DNA of 64,000 bases from a virus: the IMG/VR virus record IMGVR_UViG_3300045988_050969. One strand, 5' to 3'. Shown here one piece after another: positions 7,916 through 64,000 of the stretch (the stretch's first letter is position 1; every line of letters starts with the position of its first letter). Below the pieces are notes generated by a model. That model did not search any database. It had not been told where the DNA came from and was given only the letters and a program-made list of their open reading frames with translations. The position numbers and the translations under genes were made by a program.

Positions 7916-8036
7916 ATCTTATTTCTAATAATGTTATAAAGCTTAAAACGCATTTTAAGGCCTTTAGAGACACTTTACGTATTGTAGCTTACAATCCCTT
8001 ACCTTAACTAATAGCGTTTCTTACACGAGCTTAAAA

Positions 8037-8067
8037 CAAAAAAAGGTTGATCTTATTGACCAACCTT
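8037..8067 (-). terminator. rho-independent terminator overlapping the stop of 8053..8616
   Basis: Minus strand reads AAGGTTG-gtcaataagat-CAACCTT followed by TTTTTTTG. Confidence 0.6.
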
Positions 8068-8616
8068 ATCCATTGCATTCTTCATATCCTAAGGAAGCAT
8101 TTCCTTCATAGGTGGTGGCACCATCTAATTAGCTTTCCTTATTATATTTTTTAATTCGTTAACTTCTTTCTATAACTCTATTATCTTATCATTCTCTTTA
8201 GCTGGTTCATTATCTACTCCAAGCTTATCTAACAGAGTCTAACACTTAGCCATTTCTTCATCGCATTTAGCAATGGCTTCTTTTCTTTGTTTGTAAGTAT
8301 TATATTGATTACGTACTATACTTATAATTTCCTATTTATCTGTAGCTATAGTAAGTCCTATAGCATTGTCTGTTATAACTGATTTGTTCTCAGGTATAGT
8401 AAATTTCTTAGTTTCTCCATTACACTAGATAGTTATATCTACTACTTTCTTTCTAGGTTGATTAGGCATAGGAAATTGCCCAGGTGGTAGTGGCTCATCA
8501 TATACTGCACTTACTTGAGTAACAGAACCTTCATTATACTCAGTAGTCTTTTTGAATGTCCCAACCACTTCTATTATATATACTTTATCACCTATATTTA
8601 ATTGATTGAATAACAT
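8053..8616 (-). CDS. hypothetical protein (187 aa), TAG-recoded
   Basis: ATG 8616, TAA 8053..8055, 564 nt. Fragment 8425..8616 continues in phase through TAGs. Confidence 0.55.
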
Positions 8617-8632
8617 AATAAGTTAGTTTTAA

Positions 8633-8651
8633 GGGGCTCATTTAGAGCCCC
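8633..8651 (-). terminator. GC-rich hairpin downstream of 8660..9100
   Basis: GGGGCTC-attta-GAGCCCC, a 7-bp stem. The flanking U-run is weak. Confidence 0.4.
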
Positions 8652-8659
8652 AATTTGTA

Positions 8660-9100
8660 TTAAGCTGCCGGTGTAGCCGGTACTACTATATGATTAATTA
8701 CTTGGAAGATTCCGTCACATTTGTTATAGTATATAAGATATCTGTTACCAGTTGTAATTTCATTATTTGTCATTTGAGCTCCGGAACCATTTAATAGAGC
8801 TTTTGCTCCAGTAGATGTAATAACTGTAGTTGTATTATCAATCTATCTATTAGTAAAGCTAGTAGGATCTAAGAATACTAAATCCGTAGGAGTAGCTGCA
8901 CTAGCAGGAGTAGATGTTACATGCAGTATAAATAAACCTTGGCATGGGAGTTGTCTCCACAGTTTAGGACATATACCATAAGTAACTGAAGTAGTCGTAG
9001 TATCGGTAGTAACATAGTTAGTTCTCAATACTGGAATACCAAAATTATCTACAGTTCTTACTCTACCTCTATTAAAGTAGTTTAAAAAAGGATAAAACAT
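8660..9100 (-). CDS. hypothetical protein (146 aa), one in-frame TAG
   Basis: ATG 9100 is preceded by AGGAGG. TAA 8660..8662, 441 nt. The TAG at 8843 joins the two halves in phase. Confidence 0.5.
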
Positions 9101-9117
9101 AGCTGCCTCCTTTCTTA

Positions 9118-10035
9118 TTAGCAACCGCATCCGCAACCGTTATTATAACCGTAGCCGTAGCCGTAGCCATAATCATTCAAGCCACCCTGACAACCAAAAG
9201 GATTGCAAGTTAAGTAAGCAGGAACAGGACACGGACGAATTTGATTAACGATGTTTGCAGTTTGAGCTTGCTGAGAAGCAGACAATTGTAAAGCTTGTTT
9301 ATCTTCACGCAAAGCATCGATCTTATTCTGCATTTCTCTCATTTCGAGTTGACAGAACTTATCATTGATAATTTGAGTCTGTGCATCTATCTTAGCACCT
9401 ACAATATTAAACTTAGATGCATTATCAGCCATTAAAGAATTGAATCCATTAGTAATAGCGTTCTGCAGTGTGTTAGTCTGATTGCATACAGACAGCTGAT
9501 TTTCATAACCCATCTTAGTGATGTTGTTATTTACACCGCTAATAGATTCTCTAACATTGCAGCAGCAGCTAGCTAACTGAGAAGCCAAGCTTGCATTACC
9601 AGAAGTAATAGCATTAATTACTTCACAGCTAGACAATTTAGTATCGCAAGAAATCTGGCTTACTCCAGAATTGATAGTGTTAAGAGCTGTCTGAACAGAG
9701 TTAATATCACAATTCAAAGTATTAGCCAAGTTATTGATGGCATCTTTATTACCATTAATAGCCTGCATCAACAGATTAGTGTTAGCGTCACTGTTCAGTT
9801 CAGAAGCAAGAGCACCAGCGTTACGTCCGCCGAAACCATTACCACCGAAACCACCCCAGCAGAAGAAGATCAAAATGATCCAAATCCACCACCAACCGCC
9901 GTTTCCACCGAAACCACCGTTGTTCATCATAGCCATCAAAGCAGCCGGATCCATACCTTTATTAGCGTTTTGCATTAGAGCAGCAAGACCAGCGTCAATA
10001 CCGCGATCCTGCACAATAATTCTATCTTCTAACAT
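9118..10035 (-). CDS. Gly/Trp/Cys-rich membrane protein (305 aa)
   Basis: Intact ORF with no TAG. N-terminal GGFGGNGGWWWIWIILIFFCWGGFGGNGFGG segment, a Q/N/S-rich helical middle with many Cys (including CCC), and a C-terminal YGYGYGYGYNNGCGCGC. Visibly higher GC than its neighbours. Confidence 0.7.
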   Translation of the reverse strand: MLEDRIIVQDRGIDAGLAALMQNANKGMDPAALMAMMNNGGFGGNGGWWWIWIILIFFCWGGFGGNGFGGRNAGALASELNSDANTNLLMQAINGNKDAINNLANTLNCDINSVQTALNTINSGVSQISCDTKLSSCEVINAITSGNASLASQLASCCCNVRESISGVNNNITKMGYENQLSVCNQTNTLQNAITNGFNSLMADNASKFNIVGAKIDAQTQIINDKFCQLEMREMQNKIDALREDKQALQLSASQQAQTANIVNQIRPCPVPAYLTCNPFGCQGGLNDYGYGYGYGYNNGCGCGC

Positions 10036-10064
10036 AATTGATTTAATTTAAAAATTGATTTTTA

Positions 10065-10700
10065 TTAATATCTAACGTAGCGAACTGCTTTGCCACGTCC
10101 ATATTCTGAATAAGGTTCGTACTCTTTTTCTCTTTCGAGCATACGTTCATAATCGTCTTCATAGTCTCTAGCTCTGCTAGTAGAATATACTCTACGACCA
10201 CCACGCATCATACCACCTCTTCTACCACCTCTACGGAATAAGCCTATGCGTTCAAATTCGTCGTCATCATCATCTTCGTATTTTTCACGCTTTTCAACTT
10301 CTTCCTCATAGCATTCCATTTCAGCTTGTCTGATCTTATCACACATAACGTAAATATAGTAATACCACATCTTACCTTCATCAATGTCTTTGTCATTGAT
10401 CCAAGCTTTTGCCAATTCAACAAAATGTTTAGTGCTATTAGAATTAGTCATACTTATAATTACCTTATAGTAATCAGAATAAACCATGTTAAGTGCTACG
10501 AACCAATCATAACGATTAAATCTGCTACCCAGATTTATTCCGTATTGACTAGCTAATGCGGTAGTTTCTTCTACAGACCAATGTGGTCCACGAGTACCAT
10601 CCTCATTTTCCATTTTACTTACAGCTTTACGGGCATGTTCCTCATTGAAGTGAGGACCGTGTTCTGCTTCGTAAGCCTTTACACGAAATATTCTATGCAT
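10065..10700 (-). CDS. hypothetical protein with an acidic tract and an RGG-type C-terminus (211 aa)
   Basis: Intact ORF with no TAG. Contains DDDDDEF followed by RRGGRRGGMMRGGRR. Higher GC than neighbours. Confidence 0.7.
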   Translation of the reverse strand: MHRIFRVKAYEAEHGPHFNEEHARKAVSKMENEDGTRGPHWSVEETTALASQYGINLGSRFNRYDWFVALNMVYSDYYKVIISMTNSNSTKHFVELAKAWINDKDIDEGKMWYYYIYVMCDKIRQAEMECYEEEVEKREKYEDDDDDEFERIGLFRRGGRRGGMMRGGRRVYSTSRARDYEDDYERMLEREKEYEPYSEYGRGKAVRYVRY

Positions 10701-43178: not shown

Positions 43179-43407
43179 CTATTGAGATAATAATTTATAA
43201 CTTAAAATTCTTTAATTATGAAAAATATATGTTGGGGAGATTTCCAGTGACTGCAACCTAGTTTCTTAAGCTAGGGATTTATACGCCTTATGTTTAGTAC
43301 TCCCCACCTGGGCTAACGTTTACCCCAGACTACCTGTTCGTGATAACTACCTATCCAACAAGTTTCCTTCTGCTATTGTAATTTCAAAGGACTAGTGTTT
43401 TAATTTG

Positions 43408-43479
43408 TCCTCCTACCATAGAATCGAACTCGGACTTACGGGGCTAGAATCCGTCGTGCTGCCACTACACCATAGGAGA
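43408..43479 (-). tRNA. suppressor tRNA, anticodon CUA (decodes UAG)
   Basis: Minus strand: TCTCCTA-TG-GTGT-AGTGGCA-GCAC-G-ACGGA-[TT CTA GC]-CCCGT-AAGT(C)-..G-TTCGATT-C..-TAGGAGG-A. Anticodon loop is U33-CUA-G37, and the D-loop GG and T-loop TTCGA are present. The T-stem is weak and the acceptor/T register is ambiguous. Confidence 0.75.
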
Positions 43480-51201: not shown

Positions 51202-51898
51202 GATATACAGATTTATTCGCAAAGTAATTATTCTATGAAATGCAAATTATCCTCATATGTTGTGAAACATAATTTAACCACGTTAAAGTATAATAATATA
51301 AGTTAGGTATGCCCTTATAAAGACTTAGGTAGCGCTAAGGACTATATTATTATACTTCTCTTCTTAATGCAGCCGAGTGCCGGTGACAAGCCCGACAGAA
51401 TGCAGAGTCAAGAAAAATAATTTATTATCATTATTACGCATTCTATGCACAAGAAATGTAGTAGTTGAGAAGATGATAGATTATAATCCACGTGGTAGAT
51501 GCAGTTGTAGGTTCCAACTGGTGCACATCTTTTAGAGACAGTAACCAAGCTCGAAGTAAGCAGAGCGAAGATAGAAGCTATACCTTGATAGGCTTAATGA
51601 GGTGCTTAACAGTCTGACACTAACTGAACAATAAGTGTCCTCAGTTCCGGGTGAGTAAAGTGAATGTGGAATATATCGGACTACAGCCTCGAAGAAAGGT
51701 TCCACCAAGTATGTCAAAACTTGAGTAGAAAGTTGTACTATAACCAAAAGTATAACAGACTTAATAGAGTAAGAGAATAGAAATGTGTATATCTACGTAG
51801 TTCATAGCATAGCTTATAATCGTATAATGCAACATCGATTATATTAATGCGCTTACTCTATTATTTTTATTGCATTAACTAACAAATAAATCAATTAT

Positions 51899-52129
51899 AT
51901 GGAAACAAAAGTAATACTGTTTATTATTCATCTAACATTAGGTATAATTAGTGGTATAATCTATCTAATATACTGTTATAAAAAATACGAGGTATTGACA
52001 TTAGCAGATGCAATAGCATCTTTATTAATGTTATTTGGATGGCCAATTGTTCTATTAGCTTTATCTAGTCATTACTTTTTACTTTTTATGAGTAATCTTG
52101 AAGAGATTAGAATATTAGAGAAAAAATAA
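51899..52129 (+). CDS. small membrane protein (76 aa)
   Basis: Intact ORF with two hydrophobic helices. Confidence 0.6.
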   Translation: METKVILFIIHLTLGIISGIIYLIYCYKKYEVLTLADAIASLLMLFGWPIVLLALSSHYFLLFMSNLEEIRILEKK

Positions 52130-52149
52130 CTAATAAATAATATCAAATT

Positions 52150-52578
52150 ATGAAGAAAATAACTTGTATTCAGAATTATGTAATAGATAAGCTTATTGAA
52201 GACGAGAAATTATCTACAAATAGTCTATTAGATGCAATATCCAAAGTATGTTCAAAGGAACAATTTGATAATATACTATCTATTCTTATAGAAACACCTA
52301 TTCCTTGTACAAATATGCCTGAATTAGAAAGTAAAACAAGCTTAGTAGGAATAAGCATGTTTATACCTGAAGAAGTTAGTGGTTCTACTAAAATAGAGAT
52401 AATAAAAATAATAAAAGACCAATTTGGTCTTCGTCTTGGACAAGCTAAAGAATATGTAGATAGTTGCATAGGGAAATACGGTATGGTTCCTAAGGTTGTT
52501 GCACAAGAAGAAGTAGATATTATTACCGAAAAATTAAAACCTTACCATGTAAGTGTATCTATAGTAGGATTTTATTAA
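52150..52578 (+). CDS. protein with a ribosomal L7/L12 C-terminal-domain-like region (142 aa)
   Basis: KIEIIKIIKDQFGLRLGQAKEYVDS...VVAQEEVDIITEKLKPYHVSVSI parallels the L7/L12 CTD sequence [25 protein letters not shown]...[22 protein letters not shown]. Confidence 0.45.
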   Translation: MKKITCIQNYVIDKLIEDEKLSTNSLLDAISKVCSKEQFDNILSILIETPIPCTNMPELESKTSLVGISMFIPEEVSGSTKIEIIKIIKDQFGLRLGQAKEYVDSCIGKYGMVPKVVAQEEVDIITEKLKPYHVSVSIVGFY

Positions 52579-52609
52579 AAGTTAATGCAGTAAATATTAC
52601 TGCATCTAT

Positions 52610-52712
52610 ACTGTGAGAATCAGTATCAACTTTGTGGGGCTTATATTTAGACAATGTATGATAATAGTTGCAAATGTTATTATATAATCTAATATTAGTG
52701 CAGATGAAATCA
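52610..52712 (+). ncRNA. structured RNA-like element, copy A1
   Basis: Hairpin ACTG-tgagaat-CAGT (52610..52624), TGTGGGGCTTATAT (52633..52646) and ATTAGTGCAGATGAAATCA (52694..52712). Confidence 0.4.
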
Positions 52713-52791
52713 AAGATAGTTCGTATTTGCGGTATTGCGGGATACGAACAAGTCAAGTCATTATAAGACTGGGTAGCGTAATACAAAAAAT

Positions 52792-52812
52792 CCTAGCTGA
52801 CCTGTAGCTAGG
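52792..52812 (+). terminator. terminator-like hairpin between copies A1 and A2
   Basis: CCTAGCT-gacctgt-AGCTAGG followed by TATCTTT. Confidence 0.4.
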
Positions 52813-52819
52813 TATCTTT

Positions 52820-52934
52820 AAGGTGAGAATCCTTGACAATCCTGTGGGGCTTATATCTATCAAAAGAACTTACAGCAGCTTTTATATTAGCTTAGCTGGA
52901 CTTTATGATAGTATTAGTGCAGACGTTAAAATCA
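52820..52934 (+). ncRNA. structured RNA-like element, copy A2
   Basis: Hairpin AAGG-tgagaat-CCTT (52820..52834), TGTGGGGCTTATAT (52843..52856) and ATTAGTGCAGACGTTAAAATCA (52913..52934). Confidence 0.4.
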
Positions 52935-53263
52935 GGAACAACTACATCATTACTAACAATATTATCGGTCACAAGTCTAACGACAATATGATGTAGCCAA
53001 GTTTGTTCGTCCTTAGATTTACAGTATCAGCCATTTGTTTATTTAATCATTGTTCGTTCTTAATTATACAGATTGATTAATTAAGCATAACAGTAAGCGT
53101 ACTGTTGTCAGTATATTTATATGTGAATATAGATATACTGATTGCACTCAAAAGCTGGCCTTCACGTGGCGAGTGTGTTAAGTAATAGGTCTAAAAAATC
53201 TTCCAGTTTTACCTATGAAAACTAACAGCTACCTTTTTATTAACTTTAATAACTATCAAAAAT

Positions 53264-53449
53264 ATGTATAAAAAACTATCAAATTTAAATGTTGGAGATA
53301 TATTCCAATATGGAGACACTATATATGAAATAGTAGAAAAAGGAGTATGGCATGCAAAATGCAAGTATATTAATGAAACTCCTAAATCGGAATATTCACC
53401 TGAATATTTATTTATAAATTTTAGTCTTTATACTCGAGTTAAAGTTTAA
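53264..53449 (+). CDS. small hypothetical protein (61 aa)
   Basis: Intact ORF. Confidence 0.5.
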   Translation: MYKKLSNLNVGDIFQYGDTIYEIVEKGVWHAKCKYINETPKSEYSPEYLFINFSLYTRVKV

Positions 53450-53460
53450 TAATTTTAAAT

Positions 53461-53544
53461 GCCCAGATGTTGAAATAGGTAGACAATCCACACTTAAACT
53501 GTGGTGACCATTTGGTCGTGCGGGTTCGACTCCCGCTCTGGGTA
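53461..53544 (+). tRNA. tRNA-Leu (anticodon UAA), class II
   Basis: Acceptor GCCCAGA/TCTGGGT, D-loop AATAGGTA, anticodon arm CCACA-[CT TAA AC]-TGTGG, long variable arm GACC-ATTT-GGTC, T-arm GCGGG-TTCGACT-CCCGC. Closely parallels E. coli tRNA-Leu(UAA). Confidence 0.9.
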
Positions 53545-53576
53545 CAATTAGTAATTAACATTAAAATCAATTTAAT

Positions 53577-53876
53577 ATGAAAGAAGAAAAACTTACAAGA
53601 TTAAAAATTCTAAGAGTAATGTCATATGATCTCTTACACTTCCTTATGAGGGAAAAAATACTTAGTGTATTTCTAACTGAATGCTTAAACAATAGCTATT
53701 CCTGGGTTCTTAAAAACAGAATAGAACAAGGAATATTTCAAAATCGAAGTATTACATTACATGATATGTATGAATTTGAAAATTATTTCACATTTAGTGT
53801 GTCTACTACTTTTACTGAAAGTGCTTGGTGGAGATATGCATTTAAATATAGGGAGGAGTATTCATGGAAAGTCTAA
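53577..53876 (+). CDS. hypothetical early protein (99 aa)
   Basis: Intact ORF. Confidence 0.55.
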   Translation: MKEEKLTRLKILRVMSYDLLHFLMREKILSVFLTECLNNSYSWVLKNRIEQGIFQNRSITLHDMYEFENYFTFSVSTTFTESAWWRYAFKYREEYSWKV

Positions 53877-54175
53877 ATAGTATTACTAAATATATAGTAG
53901 GTGCTATAATATTTGTATTTATACTTATGTGGATAGCTGACAAGCTATTTATTGCGCATGTTAATACTGCTACAGAGTTTTTAGATAATTATAAGAATTA
54001 TATAATAATAAGAAAAGATAAAGGTATAAATGATTATATACTTACTATTAAAAATCCTTATACTCAAGATATTAGGTATCGAATTACTAATGTAACTGTT
54101 CCTTCTGGATTATGGTATAATTATTCTATAGGAGATACTATTGGTAAGAAAAAGCAGATATATTTTAATCAATAA
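53864..54175 (+). CDS. membrane-anchored early protein (103 aa)
   Basis: Intact ORF. N-terminal TM segment. GGGAGGAG lies upstream of the ATG. Confidence 0.55.
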   Translation: MESLNSITKYIVGAIIFVFILMWIADKLFIAHVNTATEFLDNYKNYIIIRKDKGINDYILTIKNPYTQDIRYRITNVTVPSGLWYNYSIGDTIGKKKQIYFNQ

Positions 54176-54187
54176 AAGTAAGTAGTT

Positions 54188-54556
54188 ATGAAAAGAGAAG
54201 AAATTAAATCTTACAAAGATGCCTGCAAAGTAATAGGTAGAAAACCTAGAACTTATAAAGATAAGCATCTAAATCTGTATGAACAGCTTAGTACAATTAC
54301 AGCTGCTCTGAACTTTATTAGTAATAATAACAAACCTTGGAAACCTAAGTTTGATTATTATTATATCTATTCTTGGTTATACAGAAAAGATGGATATAAT
54401 AAATCTGCGGGTTTGTTCTCTTTGGCTTCTCGCAATGGGTTGGACGATTCCCTTGCTCATGTCGGGACTTCTCTGAAGATAAAAGAAAGAGAGGATGGAA
54501 ATTACATAATAGAAAACTTTAAAGAACTACTCCAAGATTGGTTTTGGGGAAATTAA
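54188..54556 (+). CDS. hypothetical early protein (122 aa)
   Basis: Intact ORF. Confidence 0.55.
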   Translation: MKREEIKSYKDACKVIGRKPRTYKDKHLNLYEQLSTITAALNFISNNNKPWKPKFDYYYIYSWLYRKDGYNKSAGLFSLASRNGLDDSLAHVGTSLKIKEREDGNYIIENFKELLQDWFWGN

Positions 54557-54582
54557 TTACTAATTTTAAAAACATTATCAAA

Positions 54583-55041
54583 ATGGAAAATGAAATGATG
54601 GCGAGACCCGAACCGCCAAGAAGAACTGTTTGGGTAATAGTAGCAATCATTGCCTTAATAGGCATGTTTGGAGCAATGATTTATGCAGAGCGTGAAAACA
54701 TTGCTAATTTCTTAAATGGTGTGAACCAAGAAGAAGTACAAGAAGATCCTCAAGTTATCATTGAGGAACCTGTAACAACAATACAGGATATTCTCGATAT
54801 GAGAGAGCAAATGAGAGAAGATAGAAGAGTTGACAGTGTATTTTTAGCTATGCCAAAGGTAGTATTAATTGATATTTTGATGCAGCATGGTACATCATTG
54901 TCTATAAAAGACATGATTTACATATATGAATCAAACACATCAACGTACAACACAGTATTATCTGGAGCAAGAGCTCAAAAATATCTTGATGATTCTATAA
55001 AAACTAGTCCCTTACCAACGGTTGTAAACGACTCTATTTGA
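54583..55041 (+). CDS. membrane-anchored early protein (152 aa)
   Basis: First ATG at 54583, within track ORF 54538..55041. TM segment VWVIVAIIALIGMFGAMIY. Confidence 0.55.
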   Translation: MENEMMARPEPPRRTVWVIVAIIALIGMFGAMIYAERENIANFLNGVNQEEVQEDPQVIIEEPVTTIQDILDMREQMREDRRVDSVFLAMPKVVLIDILMQHGTSLSIKDMIYIYESNTSTYNTVLSGARAQKYLDDSIKTSPLPTVVNDSI

Positions 55042-55088
55042 AATTAAAACTAAACCTTCTTTCTGTTTTAAATGAATATTAGAGTCTA

Positions 55089-55263
55089 GTATACTCAGTC
55101 TGTGAAGATAGAGTATACGTCCTCAGAAAATGACAAGCATGTGGGGCGTAAGTATATACAGTAGGTTATCGTTTATCCTCATTTATACAGGTTAATTGCG
55201 CAACTGTAAAAAACGGGATTGATAGAATAGATGGTATATATGATCGTGCGGACGTTAAAATCA
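55089..55263 (+). ncRNA. structured RNA-like element, copy B
   Basis: Hairpin GTATACTC-agtctgtgaagata-GAGTATAC (55089..55118), TGTGGGGC (55140..55147), stem GTATATAC/GTATATAT and GTGCGGACGTTAAAATCA (55246..55263). Confidence 0.4.
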
Positions 55264-55457
55264 TGTACTCCAATAAGATTTAGTTTGACAGCTACTTCTG
55301 CTTATGAGTTAAAACTATAGTGAGAGTCATAGTAAGTAACGATTGTGGTCGTTTATCTTTGTCTTATAACAAATGCTATAAACCCAGTAGTTGGCACTAA
55401 CTTAATTAAATCCTGAGTGCCCAGGCGTCATTATTAATCAATTTAAACGTTTAGATT

Positions 55458-55721
55458 ATGGGAATATTATCAAAATTAACCAGAACAATGCGTATTAGAA
55501 AAATACGCAGAGAAGCTAGGCAAAAAGCTTATGAAGCATTGTGCCTGTCACCATTAAAATACTCTAGAGCAATTGCTGAAATAGATTGTATTATTGATGG
55601 TCACAAATGGAGTAGTGAATTTGATCCTAAAAAGGAAATAGCTAAAGGCACTACTAAGAGAGCATATTGCAAACATTGTGGAGTATACTATCATACTCAC
55701 ACTTATAAAGAAGATATATGA
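55458..55721 (+). CDS. hypothetical early protein (87 aa)
   Basis: Intact ORF ending in TGA. Confidence 0.55.
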   Translation: MGILSKLTRTMRIRKIRREARQKAYEALCLSPLKYSRAIAEIDCIIDGHKWSSEFDPKKEIAKGTTKRAYCKHCGVYYHTHTYKEDI

Positions 55722-55945
55722 AAAAATTAAGTAATGGATACCTAGAGACAAAATTTAAAGTATTCCGTCGTAGTGATGATACTATGGTAGACGAAACAGA
55801 AGCTTATATTAAAATAGACTCTATAGTAGGAATATGTAGAAGTATTAAAAGTAATACTACAGATATAATACTTGCAAGTGGAGATAGGTATACAACTACA
55901 GAGAATTTTGAGGATTTCTGCATAGATTTTTTTAAAGAAAATTAA
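55718..55945 (+). CDS. hypothetical early protein (75 aa)
   Basis: Intact ORF. ATGA overlap with the previous gene. Confidence 0.55.
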   Translation: MKKLSNGYLETKFKVFRRSDDTMVDETEAYIKIDSIVGICRSIKSNTTDIILASGDRYTTTENFEDFCIDFFKEN

Positions 55946-55969
55946 TTTTAATCAATAAAACTTAAACAA

Positions 55970-56368
55970 ATGAAACTTTTAATTATTGGATTTAAAGATG
56001 GAGTTAATGATGAACTCATCGAAAATGGTGTACTTGCTCTTCAAGGTATAATGGGAATAGATGTTAAAGCTACTATCTATACTGAAGATGAATTTCTACC
56101 TACTAACAAAAATAAGAAATCTATTCGTAAGAGCGATTTTATGATTGCTATAGAAAAGATTATTGAGGTATGTGGAGAAGAATCAGATAGTATAGCTTTC
56201 CGTAGTTCTTTTTATACTCTTGTCTTGAAAGGAGTAATAGAGAGACCTATTCTTGAAGTACTATCATATGGTCCTAAAACTAACAGAGATCTTGAATTCC
56301 TTTCTAAAAGAAAAGAAATGGAAAATATTGTAGAATATGCTCGCGTAGCTTTATCAATGATTTCATAA
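55970..56368 (+). CDS. hypothetical early protein (132 aa)
   Basis: Intact ORF. Confidence 0.6.
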   Translation: MKLLIIGFKDGVNDELIENGVLALQGIMGIDVKATIYTEDEFLPTNKNKKSIRKSDFMIAIEKIIEVCGEESDSIAFRSSFYTLVLKGVIERPILEVLSYGPKTNRDLEFLSKRKEMENIVEYARVALSMIS

Positions 56369-56493
56369 TGGGAAAGACATTCAAAGATAGTAATTATACC
56401 ATGAAATATGGTAATACTAAAAAAACAAGATCACGTAGAGCTAAGTTACAGCCTTATGATCGTAAAGCTAGAGACTATGAGACTGATAAGTAA
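56368..56493 (+). CDS. small basic peptide (41 aa)
   Basis: TAATG overlap with the previous stop. Sequence MGKTFKDSNYTMKYGNTKKTRSRRAKLQPYDRKARDYETDK. Confidence 0.3.
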   Translation: MGKTFKDSNYTMKYGNTKKTRSRRAKLQPYDRKARDYETDK

Positions 56494-56665
56494 TCAAAAA
56501 CTTAAAGCAACAGTAAATAATCGTTTAAAGAACGATTGTCCGTTACAATGTAATAAAAAACATTGTGATGTATGTCAATTCAGAAATGACAAATCTGAAT
56601 CGATTCCAACAGTAACTACTAATACTCCTTCGCCAGAGGTATACGGTAGAGATATGTATTATTAA
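56477..56665 (+). CDS. small Cys-containing protein (62 aa)
   Basis: Internal ATG of track ORF 56408..56665. Contains CPLQCNKKHCDVC. Confidence 0.35.
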   Translation: MRLISNQKLKATVNNRLKNDCPLQCNKKHCDVCQFRNDKSESIPTVTTNTPSPEVYGRDMYY

Positions 56666-56885
56666 CCCTAAACAAGTTAGTATGGTGCAGTCAACCCAGA
56701 ACTATTATTATCAACCAGACCCCTAATGGAAGCTTAGTAACAACTAAGCTTACTAAGCAAGAGTACAATGGACTATACAACGGTCAACCAGTATCTAATA
56801 TTGGTTTAAGATGAAGGAAAAGGGTTGCCTATGAATAAGAGATACGAATAAGTAGGATAGTAGTTCTTTTAAAGAAATTAAAGAA

Positions 56886-56945
56886 ATTGACTGTTAGGTC
56901 TATTGAATCGTCGTTTGGACGAGGGTTCGACTCCCTCATGCTCCA
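56886..56945 (+). tRNA. tRNA-like element: class-II variable arm, T-arm and 3' acceptor strand; no convincing 5' half
   Basis: GTC-gtttg-GAC, then GAGGG-TTCGACT-CCCTC, then ATGCTCC-A. No complementary GGAGCAT lies upstream. The only local stem is AATTGAC-tgttag-GTCTATT, which has a 6-nt loop. Confidence 0.3.
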
Positions 56946-56960
56946 CTAATAATAAACTGT

Positions 56961-57065
56961 ATGAAAAATAAAGAAAGAACTTGGCTTGAAGCTATTTTCT
57001 ATGCTATGTTTGCTGTAGGTATCACAGGTACTATAATACTTATAATTGGGGCATTATGGTTTTGA
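56961..57065 (+). CDS. mini-ORF encoding a 34-aa TM peptide
   Basis: MKNKERTWLEAIFYAMFAVGITGTIILIIGALWF. Confidence 0.3.
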   Translation: MKNKERTWLEAIFYAMFAVGITGTIILIIGALWF

Positions 57066-57190
57066 CAGCGATATAAGAAGAAATAGAATAGGTCAATAAG
57101 CAGATAACTGGCAATACAAGTTATGTTATGAACTATAGCCGTATTGCGGCGTAAGTTCAAAACGGCTAAGCTAATGTCGTAGAAAGCTGG

Positions 57191-57270
57191 AGTAAGGATA
57201 GTACTCAGATGGTAGAGCGGTGAGATAATATCAAAAGCTGGTATCGGAGGTTCGAGTCCTCCCCTTACTA
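57191..57270 (+). tRNA. tRNA-like gene with a good acceptor, D-arm and T-arm but an unfoldable anticodon arm
   Basis: AGTAAGG...CCTTACT-A acceptor (7 bp), ACTC-AGATGGTA-GAGC D-arm, GGAGG-TTCGAGT-CCTCC T-arm. Total 80 nt. The central GTGAGATAATATCAAAA does not pair. There are 5 nt rather than 2 between the acceptor and D stems. Confidence 0.4.
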
Positions 57271-59579: not shown

Positions 59580-60128
59580 ATGAAAGAAGAAGAAAAGCTT
59601 CTTGTAGAGCAAGCTAGAGACGGTTCCGAGAGAGCTTTTAGTACACTCTATAATACTTACAAAAAGACTGTTTGGTATACTGCTTTTAAAGTGGTAAACA
59701 ACGCAGATGCAGCAGATGATATAACATCCCAAGTATTTACTAAAGTATATTTAAAGCTTAAATCTTATACACATCACTTATCATTCGAGATGTGGTTAAA
59801 AACTATTACAGTTAATACTGCAATAGATTATATAAGAAGGAACAAAAAAGAGCAATTAAATAACTATATTGATGAAGAAGACTCTACAATTCAATTAAGT
59901 GGATTAGAACATAGTCCAGAAGATAATCTTATATTTCAACAGAATATAAATATTGTTATGGATTGTATTCCTCGTCTTAAGAAAAAATATAGAGATTTAA
60001 TTTATGCTCGGTTGGATGGAAAATCCTACCAACAAATTTCAGAAGAGCTTGCTATTCCAGAAGCGACTGTAAAGACGTGTTTGAATAAAGCAAGACAAAG
60101 ACTGAGAGAGATGTTTAACAAATATTAA
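59580..60128 (+). CDS. ECF-type (sigma-70 family) RNA polymerase sigma factor
   Basis: Region-2-like FSTLYNTYKKTVWYTAFKVVNNADAADDITSQVFTKVY and region-4 HTH SYQQISEELAIPEATVKTCLNKARQRLRE. 182 aa. Confidence 0.85.
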   Translation: MKEEEKLLVEQARDGSERAFSTLYNTYKKTVWYTAFKVVNNADAADDITSQVFTKVYLKLKSYTHHLSFEMWLKTITVNTAIDYIRRNKKEQLNNYIDEEDSTIQLSGLEHSPEDNLIFQQNINIVMDCIPRLKKKYRDLIYARLDGKSYQQISEELAIPEATVKTCLNKARQRLREMFNKY

Positions 60129-60592: not shown

Positions 60593-61975
60593 ATGGCAAA
60601 AAGTAATAAAAATGCAATTAAAACTGCAAAGAAACAAACTAAGACTGTAGAGGAAAAAGTAAAGACTCAAGCAGCAGAAGCTGCGGTTGAAGCGCCGAAA
60701 GCAGAGGAAACTAAGGTTGAAGAAACCAAAGTTGAAGAACCTACTCCTGCTCCTGTAGAAGAGAAGAAGGAAGAGATTACTAGCCCAAATGGAGAGGTAA
60801 TCGATCCAGAAGTAGTTGAAGAGACTAGTACTGAAGAACCTAAGCATACTACTCCAGTAGTAAATGCACCAAAAGTGACATCTTTAGGTGCTGCACTTTC
60901 TTCAGCTGGAGGTTCTACAGACCGTATTGACAAGAATCATGCAATTGACCTTGCAAAGATGGTATATCAAGAGTATGTAAATAATCCGGATACTCCTAGT
61001 AGTGTTCGACAGACTGCCAAAAAGCAATTCGATGTAATGACTGGAGTTGCTTTGCTTCAGTATTTTACTCAGCTAGAGGAAGACTTTGAGAATCTAGGAG
61101 TACGCATTAAACCGCATATGCGTGAACAAGCAGAAAACGTTCTTACGAATTATCTTGGAGTTAAAGTAAAGACTACTGCCCAAGATGATGGTCAGTTATT
61201 ACTTCAATTTGAAGAAATTCCAACTGAAACTCGTAAGACCGCTGCACAGGACAATAAAGCTAAGGAAAAGCCTATACCAGAACCAAGTCCTGAACTTCCT
61301 GAGAAAGAGAAGTTAGAAGCATTACGTACGATTTTCGCTCAAACTAATAAAGGTGGAATTGGAGGTAATCTCTTGAGTGGTATTGAATGGGCACGTAAAG
61401 CATTCTCATTTGCTGCTGAAGAGAAGAAGTCTGTTATCTTTGCAAATATCCTTCACAAGGGTACTGAAGCTACCATGATTAACTGCCTACGTGGTATGGT
61501 TAACGGAAAGATGGGAGCCGAGCATAGTATTCTTGGAGCTCATGCATTATTGAAAGCTTGGTGTCCTACATTGAGTGAACAAGAAGTTGCAGAATTGACT
61601 GCAGTACTCATGTCTGCTGCTTCTAAGAAGAAAGTTGATGATTGGAACGAGAAGGGCGGTTCGTCTCATGGAAAGCCAACTTATGACGGAGAACTTACTG
61701 TAGTAAATCGTCAGATTTTAGCAGCAAATGCAGGAAATGTAATCGATGCTATCCTGAAGGGTAATATTGAAGACGTTGCTGTAAAGGTTCCAGACAGTCA
61801 GCTTGATATGATTGTTCATCCAAATTCTATCCGTAAAACGCTTATAGCAGCATATGGAGATTCTGAAAATATTCTAAAAGACAAGTTAAAAGAACTTGTT
61901 CAGTATTATGCTAAGCCTATTATGCGTTTGTCTTCATATGTGGACAAGTCAGCATACGCTGAAGCTAAAAAGTAA
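60593..61975 (+). CDS. hypothetical early protein (460 aa) with a K/E/A/P-rich N-terminus
   Basis: Intact ORF with higher GC. Confidence 0.7.
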   Translation: MAKSNKNAIKTAKKQTKTVEEKVKTQAAEAAVEAPKAEETKVEETKVEEPTPAPVEEKKEEITSPNGEVIDPEVVEETSTEEPKHTTPVVNAPKVTSLGAALSSAGGSTDRIDKNHAIDLAKMVYQEYVNNPDTPSSVRQTAKKQFDVMTGVALLQYFTQLEEDFENLGVRIKPHMREQAENVLTNYLGVKVKTTAQDDGQLLLQFEEIPTETRKTAAQDNKAKEKPIPEPSPELPEKEKLEALRTIFAQTNKGGIGGNLLSGIEWARKAFSFAAEEKKSVIFANILHKGTEATMINCLRGMVNGKMGAEHSILGAHALLKAWCPTLSEQEVAELTAVLMSAASKKKVDDWNEKGGSSHGKPTYDGELTVVNRQILAANAGNVIDAILKGNIEDVAVKVPDSQLDMIVHPNSIRKTLIAAYGDSENILKDKLKELVQYYAKPIMRLSSYVDKSAYAEAKK

Positions 61976-61980
61976 TCAAT

Positions 61981-62364
61981 ATGAAGCGTTTTAATATATT
62001 AGTCACACTAGTAATGGTGTGCCTAGGAGGATTTATAGGATTTGATCCTAATTCTCCGTCTCAAACTGCAAATGCTGAAGAAACTCGAATTCGTTGGGTA
62101 GACGTACCTAAAATGCCAGTAGACGTACTAGGCTTGAATGAAGAGAAATCTATCAACATTGACTTGCAGGAAAAGACTGTATTATTTAATGGAGACGTTG
62201 ATAATACTACTGTGACAATTAAAACGGACGTTGAGACACGCCCAGAGTATATAACCAAGATAGTAGAAAAGGTAGTATATCTGCCTGAAGATATTGCCTA
62301 TAGAAGCAAATTTTTTAATCGCCTAAAACCGATTAATAAAGAACTACCAGTGAAGAATTGGTAA
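61981..62364 (+). CDS. signal-anchored or secreted small protein (127 aa)
   Basis: Intact ORF. N-terminal hydrophobic segment ILVTLVMVCLGGFIGF. Confidence 0.6.
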   Translation: MKRFNILVTLVMVCLGGFIGFDPNSPSQTANAEETRIRWVDVPKMPVDVLGLNEEKSINIDLQEKTVLFNGDVDNTTVTIKTDVETRPEYITKIVEKVVYLPEDIAYRSKFFNRLKPINKELPVKNW

Positions 62365-64000
62365 CTGCCGAAGAGAAACGCAGACCGCTACTAGAACTAT
62401 ACAAGCGGTATACAAGAGCTATAAGTATAAATATTCATTATTTGAGCCTAACTAAGCCGTGTAATGTGAGTAATACAGGATACTGAAATGTATTAAGTAA
62501 AAGCTAACACTATTTACTTATGCTATAGTATGATAACTTGTTGTGTTATAAAATTACTCTATAACTGAAGAAGCAACAGGAAAATGGGAGAGCGTGCATA
62601 ACCCATGAGCGAGAACCGTACTGGTGGCTAAAAGACGCAGATGTGGAAGGAGCAGCTATCGCATCTAAACAAAGCAAGGGGTATCGTTTACCTCTATACA
62701 CATTCGTTGACCAATATCACTGGTGAAATCACGAAGGAATGTGAACACGTGCTGTTTATACGTTGTCATCTTAACTGAGAATCGACTAGCATTCTAGGGT
62801 GTCTCCAAAACCCCCTTGGCCCACTACTTAAGTGTGTACGAGCCTAAAGAATATTGCCTTAGTGTTCTATATTATATCTAAAGATCTTCTGTTGTATAGA
62901 AGTGTAAAATTCAATTGGGAATCGGGAAAATCGATAGCAAGATTAGTACTTGGATATGATATATATGAAGGAGGAGGATAATATAATAATGAGCAGAAAT
63001 TAATTAAGACATGGCTGAGTGGCTATGATCCGTATAATATCTTTTTGTATGAGAGTTATATGACAGATTAACCGGATTGGGTGCAAAACCCTTACGCAAT
63101 ACAGTGAACGTTAGAGTTAGCTGTTTGGGAGAAATCCCTATGGAAAGTAAATTGCGTGTCTTACAGCTTAAGAGATTTCATAATATAGTTGCAATTACTA
63201 TAGTGTTTAGAAATAAGCATAATGAAGTTTAGGTTATTATATTATAAAGTGACTTGTTAGTAATGTCACTATAAAGCTTAGTGTGCTTTGCACCGAGTAA
63301 TAAACTAACTAGCGCTTGAAGTCCGCGAAAAGACTATTAGTAGTTGGATATATGATCAATATAAGTATATTCATGGGAAACAAAGGAAGGTGGAACTGAG
63401 ACCACCCATAAAACTCAGGCAAAGTAAGTAAGGTATCTTTAACCAAGATTCGCTAGAAATAATTAGGTAAGAGCTATGCACTCCAGCATAGAGCAGGATC
63501 TTACGATGCGTCTTAAGGGGCCGACACGAAGTAGAATGGAAGTAATCTACGTATTGCCTTGATTAGTTAATGTTATATAAGATGTTATATACTTTAGTAA
63601 GTCTAATCAATGAGTGCCTACGCTGAAACGAACAGCTAAAACAAATAAGGAGAGTGTAAACATGTTTAATTTTTTAAAACAATAGGGAAGTTCAATGGTA
63701 GTACCTTGACAAAGTATGAGCCACCCCGCTATTGAAGTAACTTGCTACATGAAATTCCGTAAACTAATATGCGCAACATATTAGCTAAGGAGATCGCTGA
63801 GACGGCTGGTATGCTTCTCATTAGAGTGTACTAAAACGTTGTTGAATGGTTGGAAATACCATGAGTAGAAAATAGTAACCTGAGATTTATCGCAATGTCA
63901 GAAGTGAAATGTCCAAAAGTGGGTGCTGCGAAACATCAGCAGCTTTTGTAAATCAGTAGTTTTAGTAACGTTTCTCAACAGAAACGACCCTCATTCGCCA
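62365..64000. other. 1.6 kb ORF-free, locally GC-rich region rich in short hairpins (candidate large structured RNA or RNAs); continues past the window edge
   Basis: The six-frame track shows no ORF of 60 aa or more here. TAA and TGA are dense in all frames, so TAG recoding does not rescue coding. There are many 4-7 bp stems with GAAA/GCAA-type loops. Confidence 0.45.

Follow-up and report, generated by a model that had tools for sequence, protein, structure and literature searches.

The question raised by the last 1,636 nt of a 64,000-nt stretch of viral DNA, IMG/VR record IMGVR_UViG_3300045988_050969, is what can be encoded by a region that is filled by no open reading frame (ORF). The whole stretch is called here the window, and the region studied occupies its positions 62365-64000. 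A sequence-only reading of the window had proposed that it specifies a large structured non-coding RNA, and this core claim is supported by positional conservation, by a non-coding pattern of change and by extensive covariation. The locus is non-coding, is conserved in sequence and in position among related phages, has a covarying structure for which the + strand is favoured, and is without a match among known RNA families; the preferred reading is that of a new and very large structured RNA region, made of several domains and family-wide.

The ORF-free gap and its distribution

The studied region is 98.2% identical, over its full length, to the crAss-like phage cr115_1 (NC_055898.1; Crassvirales, Suoliviridae, Uncouvirinae), and has 81% DNA identity with cr114_1 and cr125_1, both Uncouvirinae. 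In cr115_1 the annotation is empty between a gene for 127 amino acids (aa), whose stop corresponds to window position 62364, and a gene for 188 aa. This gap measures 2.2 kb (8001-10196 of the cr115_1 locus, L001); the window covers its first 1,636 nt, and the ORF-free stretch reaches about 560 nt beyond the window end, as expected from the earlier suggestion that the region runs off the window. A gap of 2.0-2.5 kb, devoid of ORFs and located between genes of about 130 aa and about 190-225 aa, was found in every lineage examined of the Suoliviridae, the delta crAss-like phages that are very abundant in the human gut, comprising 13 sequence clusters, Boorivirinae and at least four further lineages; it is also present, with the same flanking homologues, in cr114_1 and cr125_1, and it measures 2.08 kb in cr6_1 (Bearivirinae) and 2.48 kb in cr1_1 (Boorivirinae). 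The position, whose conservation had been proposed as a check, is the same in all relatives examined.

To gather relatives, an exact 22-mer located toward the 3′ end, AGTAAAGTCCTACGGGGAATGC, was used; it retrieved 85 IMG/VR loci, every one of them on a contig of crAss-like size. The whole region is held by 57 loci (from the 22-mer set and from loci already in hand), which form 13 clusters at 97% identity, the distant ones being only about 50% identical. The same 22-mer is found in 78 contigs of a public metagenome collection, many of about 100 kb, and those with a source stated in the record name are human-gut assemblies. Among 185,579 bacterial and archaeal species genomes, true matches to the element are confined to contigs measuring about 100 kb, or a few kb in metagenome-assembled genomes (MAGs) or draft assemblies, and never lie within an ordinary bacterial chromosome. 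The contigs carrying the 5′ domain include three of about 100 kb (L253, L258, L260) and three of 3.6-7.8 kb (L229, L246, L275), which GTDB places in species genomes of Bacilli, Sphaerochaeta, Thauera, Clostridium and others; judged by their size and content, they look like mis-binned or contaminant crAss-like phage contigs and not bacterial DNA.

No ORF of 60 aa or more is present on either strand of 62365-64000, as previously claimed, the longest start-to-stop ORFs having 51 aa. Across the six frames no stretch of more than 63 codons is free of stops, against 85 +/- 18 in shuffled sequences, and the region is thus no more open than random sequence. That reading TAG as sense would not help holds for the + strand (64 codons) and fails for the - strand, where runs of 105 and 89 codons appear, so that the absence of an ORF "in any code" was slightly overstated; these antisense frames sit at differing positions among relatives. 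In all 13 clusters the + strand lacks a stop-free run of 80 codons under the standard code, and with TAG or TGA as sense a few runs of 80-105 codons arise, with no frame common to the lineages. The period-3 power of variability in the aligned lineages is 1.5, 0.13 and 0.002 times the median in the gap, and 10.7, 21.8 and 87 times the median in the flanking genes. No ORF conserved in frame and extent was found within the aligned gaps; the sole recurrent small ORF has its ATG within an invariant RNA motif and an end that differs by lineage. A hidden gene in the relatives, indicated beforehand as the outcome that would count against an RNA, was looked for, and the homologous regions are non-coding in all relatives examined. 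Two short hypothetical ORFs are annotated within the gap of cr114_1 and cr125_1. In the stretch 7653-8324 of L002 and L003, RefSeq has a 53-aa hypothetical protein (8163-8324) that lies inside the conserved RNA region; in view of the lack of codon periodicity and of a shared frame, this ORF is probably spurious. In the same stretch the upstream gene is annotated with 155 aa and reaches into the gap, while its homologue has 127 aa in cr115_1 and in the window.

Base composition is less informative than had been thought. The segment 62581-62640 does have 51.7% G+C, and a general excess over coding sequence is not found: the region has 36.9%, the whole window 33.3% and the neighbouring gene gp74 39.7%, the last value making the excess modest and local and the argument from G+C weak. 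Mean pairwise nucleotide identity is 0.50-0.68 over most of the gap, with two 100-nt bins at 0.44-0.47, and 0.43-0.54 in the flanking genes. The 460-aa protein encoded upstream (60593-61975) is 57% identical to that of cr114_1, and the cr115_1 and cr6_1 proteins are only 26.6% identical; despite this divergence, the gaps of cr115_1 and cr6_1 share many identical blocks. The non-coding pattern, together with a conservation above that of the neighbouring genes, indicates strong purifying selection on something other than protein.

Covariation, strand and order of the domains

The 13 gaps were aligned with MAFFT (alignment A2), and the RNAalifold consensus contains 387 pairs in 78 helices. Standard pairs occupy 88.7% of the cells, against 76.9% after shuffling and 37-43% when the columns are slid by 1-3. 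Double (compensatory) changes are present at 218 of the 387 pairs, with 111 +/- 6 in shuffled and 69-86 in slid alignments, these counts being inflated because structure and counts share one MAFFT alignment; none of 500 shuffles reached any of the observed pairing measures. Given this circularity, the identical pipeline was run as a control on the flanking coding sequence, which yielded -29 to -35 kcal/mol and 77-81% standard pairs, while each third of the gap yielded -108 to -130 kcal/mol and 87-92%. Folding the consensus on the + strand gives -363 kcal/mol, compared with -326 for the - strand; in addition, the + strand helices contain 377 G-U against 103 A-C combinations; this excess indicates an RNA read from the + strand, the same strand as all the neighbouring genes. 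The covariation for which a comparative alignment had been recommended is therefore extensive across the 13 lineages. It includes the six stems singled out by the sequence-only reading, all of which were correctly placed and are perfectly paired, a hairpin being kept at each site across the 13 lineages via changes on both sides.

The features are listed in Table 1. The conserved element appears, on balance, to start near 62468, to measure about 2.0 kb and to end about 500 nt past the window end, the window holding its first three quarters. The spacer that precedes it probably lies outside the element, since its columns are not conserved. The two helices of the 5′ leader (4 and 5) are 97-100% paired across the 13 lineages, each with double changes at three of five pairs, and the leader module (D0) is found by nhmmer in most lineages. 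Exactly two copies of a 15-mer, AATAAAAGNTAANAC, are present in 17.6 kb of cr115_1 (L001 8132-8146 and 10102-10116), one near each edge of the gap, the first copy being window 62496-62510. At least two matches occur in 5 of 200 shuffles, and in cr6-type phages the gap edges share TATAGCT instead; the paired 15-mer could be due to chance in A/T-rich sequence or could be a signal marking both boundaries.

Domain 1 contains the near-invariant strings GGGAGAGCGTG, GAGAACCG and AAGACGCA. In domain 2, which carries the invariant strings TAGTGTTCTAT and ATATATGAAGG and has a longer tip in the subfamily of the window, helices 20-23 comprise 21 pairs, 14 of them with double changes, and are 88-100% paired, in agreement with the single-sequence fold. 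The closing helix of domain 3 (helix 24) has double changes at 10 of its 12 pairs and is recovered by the minimum-energy single-sequence fold of 62855-63243; the inner helices 26-28 are 92-100% paired. The segment 62855-63243, which corresponds to domains 2 and 3, is the only one standing out for stability (z = -2.97, 1 of 100 shuffles being as stable). In the candidate pseudoknot of domain 4, stem 2 (helix 39) is 100% paired with double changes at three of four pairs, and in stem 1 lineage L059 has GTG...CAC for GCG...CGC. The GGTGG/CCACC hairpin of domain 5 is replaced elsewhere in alignment A2 by AGTGG/CCACT, CCAG/CTGG, CCCAG/CTGGG or CTCAG/CTGAG; as the single-sequence z-score of this domain is -0.14, its support comes from the comparison of lineages and not from thermodynamics. 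Domain 6 contains the conserved strings TAAACATGTTTAA (63657-63669) and GGGAAGTTCAATGGTAG (63685-63701). In cr115_1 the element goes on for about 500 nt beyond the window (L001 9634-10140), with a further domain, a three-way junction with AGTAAAGTCCTACGGGGAATGC, and a terminal hairpin of about 100 nt followed by a T-run, after which comes the ribosome-binding hairpin of the next gene.

Domain 1 was also converted into a covariance model, R1 (window 62533-62748). RNAalifold gives for this domain 46 pairs, 35 with double changes, and R1 scores 191 bits on the window (E 7e-63). Full-length matches with E from 1e-19 to 1e-80 were obtained in Boorivirinae and also in several further lineages without the 22-mer, all outside the training set of the model; each of the new lineages has an ORF-free gap of 2.0-2.45 kb with the same flanking gene sizes. 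When they are included, double changes are found at 38 of the 46 pairs, and paired cells amount to 88.8%, against 66% after shuffling and about 40% after sliding. As controls, loci matched by chance by degenerate DNA patterns were used: R1 found nothing in about 75 unrelated viral loci, and in 61 bacterial loci it gave six matches, each on a contig measuring about 100 kb, or a few kb in a MAG or draft assembly; overall, about 130 unrelated control loci were free of matches. The matches in lineages outside the training set indicate that the element is general to the family as sampled. A weak second match (22.5 bits, model positions 177-219) lies about 2.07 kb downstream of the main one in two loci (L186 11754-11796 and L258 5831-5873), by position near the 3′ end of the gap, so that the last domain-1 hairpin (ending ...AATCA.GAAGGA) may be present there again; a string similar to this hairpin end is part of the leader hairpin of the next gene. 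Simple patterns were of little use: a degenerate one for the domain-1 core gave mostly chance matches in unrelated viral contigs, and a tighter one gave mostly chance matches in bacterial genomes of high G+C, the covariance model being needed to sort out the true ones.

Table 1. Positions of the domains, helices and hairpins of the locus and of the RNA genes in its neighbourhood (window coordinates)
Feature	Position	Strand	Details
Variable spacer after the stop of the 127-aa gene	62365-62467	+	Poorly aligned or absent in other lineages
5′ leader, two nested hairpins	62468-62532	+	62480-62484/62527-62531; 62500-62503/62510-62514
Domain 1, most widely conserved module	62533-62748	+	RNAalifold, covariance model R1
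Domain 1 helices	62537-62544/62573-62580; 62545-62550/62560-62565; 62585-62588/62602-62605	+	Third helix GGG...CCC
Domain 1 helices, continued	62616-62618/62622-62624; 62639-62648/62656-62666; 62676-62682/62690-62696; 62699-62705/62737-62743	+	
Linker hairpin AGGGGT...ACCCCT between domains 1 and 2	62796-62816	+	Helix 19, 95.8% paired, 3/6 double changes
Domain 2, long irregular hairpin	62856-62975	+	62856-62859/62972-62975; 62863-62873/62958-62971; 62877-62883/62948-62954
Domain 3, multi-branched, about 265 nt	62979-63244	+	Closed by A/U-rich 12-bp helix 62979-62991/63233-63244
Subfamily-specific hairpin in domain 3	63010-63027	+	Holds the first "D-arm" string
Domain 3 inner helices	63079-63091; 63094-63100/63151-63157; 63116-63122/63142-63148	+	First is GGGT-GCAAA-ACCC
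Domain 3 tip hairpin GGGA-GAAA-TCCC	63127-63138	+	
Domain 4	63248-63369	+	Helices 34-40
Domain 4 hairpins	63248-63270; 63277-63297; 63345-63369	+	First AGTGAC...GTCACT; second conserved, around GTGCTTTGCAC
Candidate H-type pseudoknot in domain 4, stem 1	63312-63314 with 63324-63326	+	GCG with CGC; reading of alignment A2
Candidate H-type pseudoknot in domain 4, stem 2	63320-63323 with 63332-63335	+	AGTC with GACT; helix 39
Domain 5	63389-63619	+	Helices 41-51, 75-90% paired, double changes in most pairs
Domain 5 hairpins	63389-63406; 63429-63434/63442-63447; 63471-63479/63486-63494	+	First GGTGG...CCACC
Domain 5 sub-domain	63516-63521/63614-63619 (closing)	+	Inside: 63531-63535/63546-63550, 63559-63566/63603-63610
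Domain 6, cut by the window end	63651-64000	+	Helices 57, 61-63
Domain 6 hairpins	63764-63771/63777-63784; 63969-63986	+	Second CGTTTC...GAAACG
Domain 6 hairpin GCTGC-GAAACATCA-GCAGC	63925-63943	+	Conserved loop
Suppressor tRNA, anticodon CUA	43407-43479	-	
RAGATH-6	51210-51360	+	Rfam 15
RAGATH-7	51417-51640	+	Rfam 15
Three hatchet ribozymes	52604-52715; 52814-52937; 55119-55266	+	Rfam 15
tRNA-Leu(UAA)	53461-53545	+	
RAGATH-9	56687-56867	+	Rfam 15
Permuted transfer-messenger RNA (tmRNA)	56853-57245	+	Rfam 15

One transcript or several units, and the possible function

The explanation considered moderately probable overall is that of a conserved locus, about 2.0 kb long, for a non-coding RNA that is likely expressed as one transcript and acts as RNA. 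Its RNA would fold into at least nine local domains arranged in a fixed series, with the same order and spacing in every lineage examined, and would act either whole or after being cut into pieces; most likely it would be transcribed as one long transcript together with the neighbouring early or middle genes. A bolder form of this explanation and a rival to it have to be distinguished. According to the bolder form, put forward tentatively, the whole 2.0-2.5 kb would be one folded RNA, exceeding in size every structured non-coding RNA known from phages or bacteria except ribosomal RNA, and conserved across a whole family of the most abundant human-gut viruses; it might serve during infection as an RNA machine or an RNA-only assembly, and might hold new catalytic modules. 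According to the rival, which is possible and equally doubtful, the gap would be a fixed array of independent small or medium RNA genes with functions of their own, comparable to the island of RNA genes 6-11 kb upstream, and some of which could be new self-cleaving ribozymes that cut a precursor.

An array would be in keeping with the many separate structured RNAs of the same genome, some of them in tandem with no ORF between, and with the hatchet ribozymes, which have the same direction of transcription and show that RNA cutting occurs in this phage. It would also account for modules differing in their breadth of conservation and for the local character of the well-supported helices. Against it stands the arrangement of the modules, which per-module profile searches found to be collinear, at near-equal offsets, in all lineages. 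In the lineages compared the gap has no conserved intrinsic terminator, and its sigma-70-like sites are no more frequent than expected by chance; on the + strand, the only site resembling a terminator is the GCTGC/GCAGC hairpin, whose T-run is not conserved. No known ribozyme family is matched by the gap, even at permissive thresholds. Moreover, for the block GGAAGTTCAATGG the best duplex partner in the whole gap lies 450-510 nt downstream in most lineages (-18 to -27 kcal/mol), with one-sided changes that preserve pairing; blocks so far apart that are mutual best partners go beyond a typical small RNA. On these grounds one long primary transcript would be placed ahead of an array of independent genes, although not by much.

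Several points, besides the inflation of the pair counts, weigh against a single RNA of this kind. The helices with double changes all span 270 nt or less, and the predicted helices that span more than 400 nt (9, 11, 43, 52 and 54) have almost no double changes, so that the 5′ and 3′ ends are not tied together by covariation. The long-range duplex of GGAAGTTCAATGG is absent in the subfamily of the window itself. In the most distant lineages only some modules are recognisable by sequence in profile searches; in Boorivirinae and two other lineages, those not detected by sequence comprise the 3′ junction domain and several modules of the middle part. Two of the three segments tested as single sequences have unremarkable stability (z-scores of -1.22 and -0.14), and the invariance of the 22-mer is in part a product of the choice of the set, because the sequences were collected with the exact 22-mer. 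One module seems to have moved: in lineage L064 (alignment A2, columns 1770-1810 against 1905-1945) the hairpin GTGGGTG-stem-GAAACAT-stem lies 5′ of the GGTGGAAATCC...AAGTCGTAAGTACACGC block, while it lies 3′ of it in the other lineages. This looks like a local rearrangement or a permutation, and a moved module would fit separable units. Finally, the flanking proteins have no Pfam or PHROG match and give no functional lead, so that any role has to be drawn from the neighbourhood.

This neighbourhood is rich in RNA genes, which form an island at 51210-57245, 5-11 kb upstream of the locus (Table 1); outside the gap, Rfam 15 identifies in the window RAGATH-6, -7 and -9, three hatchet ribozymes, the permuted tmRNA and two tRNAs. 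RAGATH-9, hatchet, the RAGATH-7-associated motif and tmRNA recur in related loci, a recurrence which indicates that several "orphan" RAGATH motifs reside in Suoliviridae phages. A sigma factor gene (59580-60128, +), with regions 2 and 4 of sigma-70 resembling those of extracytoplasmic function (ECF) sigma factors, precedes the locus by 2.2 kb (in the cr115_1 homologue, Pfam E 1e-13 and 7e-12 for the two regions); its product could drive transcription of the RNA locus. For a nearby upstream gene, Pfam did not bear out the annotation "ribosomal protein-like", and the block downstream of the gap contains genes for a DNA polymerase, a helicase and an annealing protein. From this context, the best guess for the RNA is a structural or scaffold role, in which it would bind host or phage factors in the take-over of host gene expression, alongside the nearby tmRNA, tRNAs, RAGATH motifs and hatchet ribozymes; in the working model the RNA would act in trans, as a scaffold or decoy produced at an early or middle stage of infection.

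A role in cis seems improbable. The RNA would then be a very long structured leader for the gene of about 190 aa and the replication genes, or a transcript priming replication like ColE1 RNA II, as might be suggested by the location of the gap directly upstream of the replication block and by the last module (helix 78), a hairpin right before the ribosome-binding site of the next gene. The weak matches to the last domain-1 hairpin about 2.07 kb downstream could be read in the same way, as could a perfect 27-nt direct repeat, AACTAGCATAGCATTCGATTTTCAGAT, which in cr6_1 surrounds the conserved block GGGTATAAATCTCCTACCGTTGGAGTCCCG (L004 9498-9524 and 9599-9625). Both copies are found in all cr6-type lineages, where they change together, and none in the subfamily of the window, so the repeat is confined to one lineage group. 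Furthermore, 2 kb of conserved multi-domain structure far exceeds known leaders or primer RNAs; the GC skew is positive and the cumulative skew rises across the gap, with no origin-like turning point; and no A/T-rich unwinding region or iteron array is common to the lineages.

Still less probable is an element working at the DNA level, whose many inverted repeats would form a packaging signal, a recombination site or an array of protein-binding sites: pairs are kept via G-U intermediates (377 G-U vs 103 A-C), as expected for RNA and not for DNA hairpins, folded RNA typically has conserved loops, bulges and multi-branch junctions such as these, and neither the window nor the related contigs start or stop at the locus. 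Hidden coding is the least credible of all, whether by a frameshifted or misassembled gene, by another genetic code or by exons split by self-splicing introns: delta and zeta crAss-like phages do have self-splicing group I introns in core genes and the delta phages read TAG as sense in late genes (PMC7886860), and the window has a CUA suppressor tRNA and a - strand that opens to 105 codons with TAG as sense, but codon periodicity is lacking in the gap and strong in both flanking genes, no frame is conserved in the 13 lineages under code 11 or with TAG or TGA as sense, the presence of the gap in every lineage, in dozens of independent assemblies at about 50-98% identity, rules out an assembly error, and a group I or II intron was rejected, as no Rfam intron core was found at any threshold and no endonuclease ORF, the flanking ORFs have each their own start and stop codons in all lineages, and the gap is universal and not sporadic.

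Known RNA families and comparable systems

The Rfam scan suggested by the sequence-only reading was run with Rfam 15, and no family matches inside the gap: nothing reaches the gathering score in the gap of the window or of seven related loci, and permissive scans (E <= 10 for the window part, E <= 5 for the gap of cr6_1 and for the remainder of that of cr115_1) gave only chance-level matches with E >= 0.7. The candidates GOLLD, ROOL, HEARO and introns, which had been named in advance, thus find no match up to E 5-10; GOLLD (RF01998) and ROOL (RF03087) have neither a gathering-score nor a permissive match. The supposed tRNA D-arm-like fragments exist as strings (63011-63026 and 63685-63701) and are not tRNA according to ARAGORN and Rfam: the first lies in an insertion found only in Uncouvirinae, and the second is a conserved block. 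Neither ARAGORN nor Rfam called a tRNA or tmRNA when the gaps of the window and of 12 related loci were scanned. As in the descriptive class of large ornate structured non-coding RNAs, the locus is non-coding and has many covarying helices. A literature search combining crAss-like phages, Crassvirales or Suoliviridae with non-coding RNA, GOLLD, ROOL or RAGATH yielded no description of the region, and non-coding regions are not mentioned in the main comparative genomics paper on crAss-like phages and in a 2023 review.

Other candidates were tried and discarded. Twister-P3 (RF03154) resembles the block 63306-63347 in having a short hairpin with a loop that pairs downstream; its match is not significant (16.7 bits against a threshold of 39.9, E = 6.3), and the block does not belong to the family because it has 5 nt where the model expects 34 and most of the ribozyme core is missing. 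It is the only match obtained among the known self-cleaving ribozymes (twister, hatchet, hammerhead, pistol, HDV-like and others), and the detection of hatchet elsewhere in the window indicates that the ribozyme search works on this genome. The strings GAAGAACGGCTGACTCAT...ATGAGTAAAGTCC are slightly like conserved regions V and I, in swapped order, of a permuted RNase P; this candidate was dropped, as the P4-like pairing obtained by hand has about 4 bp, a local three-way junction covaries instead (helices 67-69) and no model matches. The motif AGTAT(N)ATAAC, which closely precedes domain 1 and, in related loci, also lies ahead of a few genes, was rejected as a promoter, being not enriched, not located before genes in the window, and part of one strand of a covarying helix; a Shine-Dalgarno-like string, AATCAAGAAGGAG, is likewise not enriched as a recurring signal.

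To our knowledge, large and intricately folded RNAs are rare, and nearly every one that is well understood is fundamental, as the ribosome, RNase P, introns and tmRNA. The present locus is two to four times the size of GOLLD, ROOL and OLE, has been retained by all the lineages examined in a phage family widespread in human-gut metagenomes, and evolves more slowly than the adjoining proteins. Rfam 15 does not contain it, and the reference genomes leave it unannotated, save that two of them have two short hypothetical ORFs there. The crAss-like phages devote about 2% of the genome to this one RNA locus, besides tmRNA, tRNAs, RAGATH and hatchet, and several orphan RAGATH motifs can now be placed in a named virus family. 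At least nine covarying domains are available for probing structure, catalysis and binding partners.

Among known systems, GOLLD (about 800 nt) and ROOL (about 580 nt) are the closest in character; OLE, like both of them, forms RNA-only assemblies. GOLLD and ROOL share with this locus a large, ORF-free and heavily structured sequence with many covarying helices and multi-branch junctions, and they are encoded by phages near tRNA or tmRNA genes; here the gap is preceded at about 5 kb by the tmRNA and followed at about 1.3 kb by a tRNA-Leu. Unlike them, the locus measures about 2.0-2.5 kb and has no supported helix closing the whole element, and its host range is different, since it belongs to crAss-like phages of human-gut Bacteroidota. 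GOLLD and ROOL are reported to form RNA-only multimers (PMC12286853). The RAGATH and hatchet RNAs (RF02686, RF03159, RF03146, RF03105, RF02678) have only 110-225 nt each and are defined in Rfam, whereas the gap is ten times longer, has a fixed order of modules and is matched by none of them; they are similar in being structured RNAs revealed by comparative genomics of metagenomic phage-like DNA, and they reside in the same phage genomes, on the same strand and a few kb upstream. Finally, the group I introns of crAss-like phages differ from the locus in that they interrupt core genes, are sporadic and usually carry a homing endonuclease gene, and they resemble it as structured, ORF-poor RNA segments of the same phage family.

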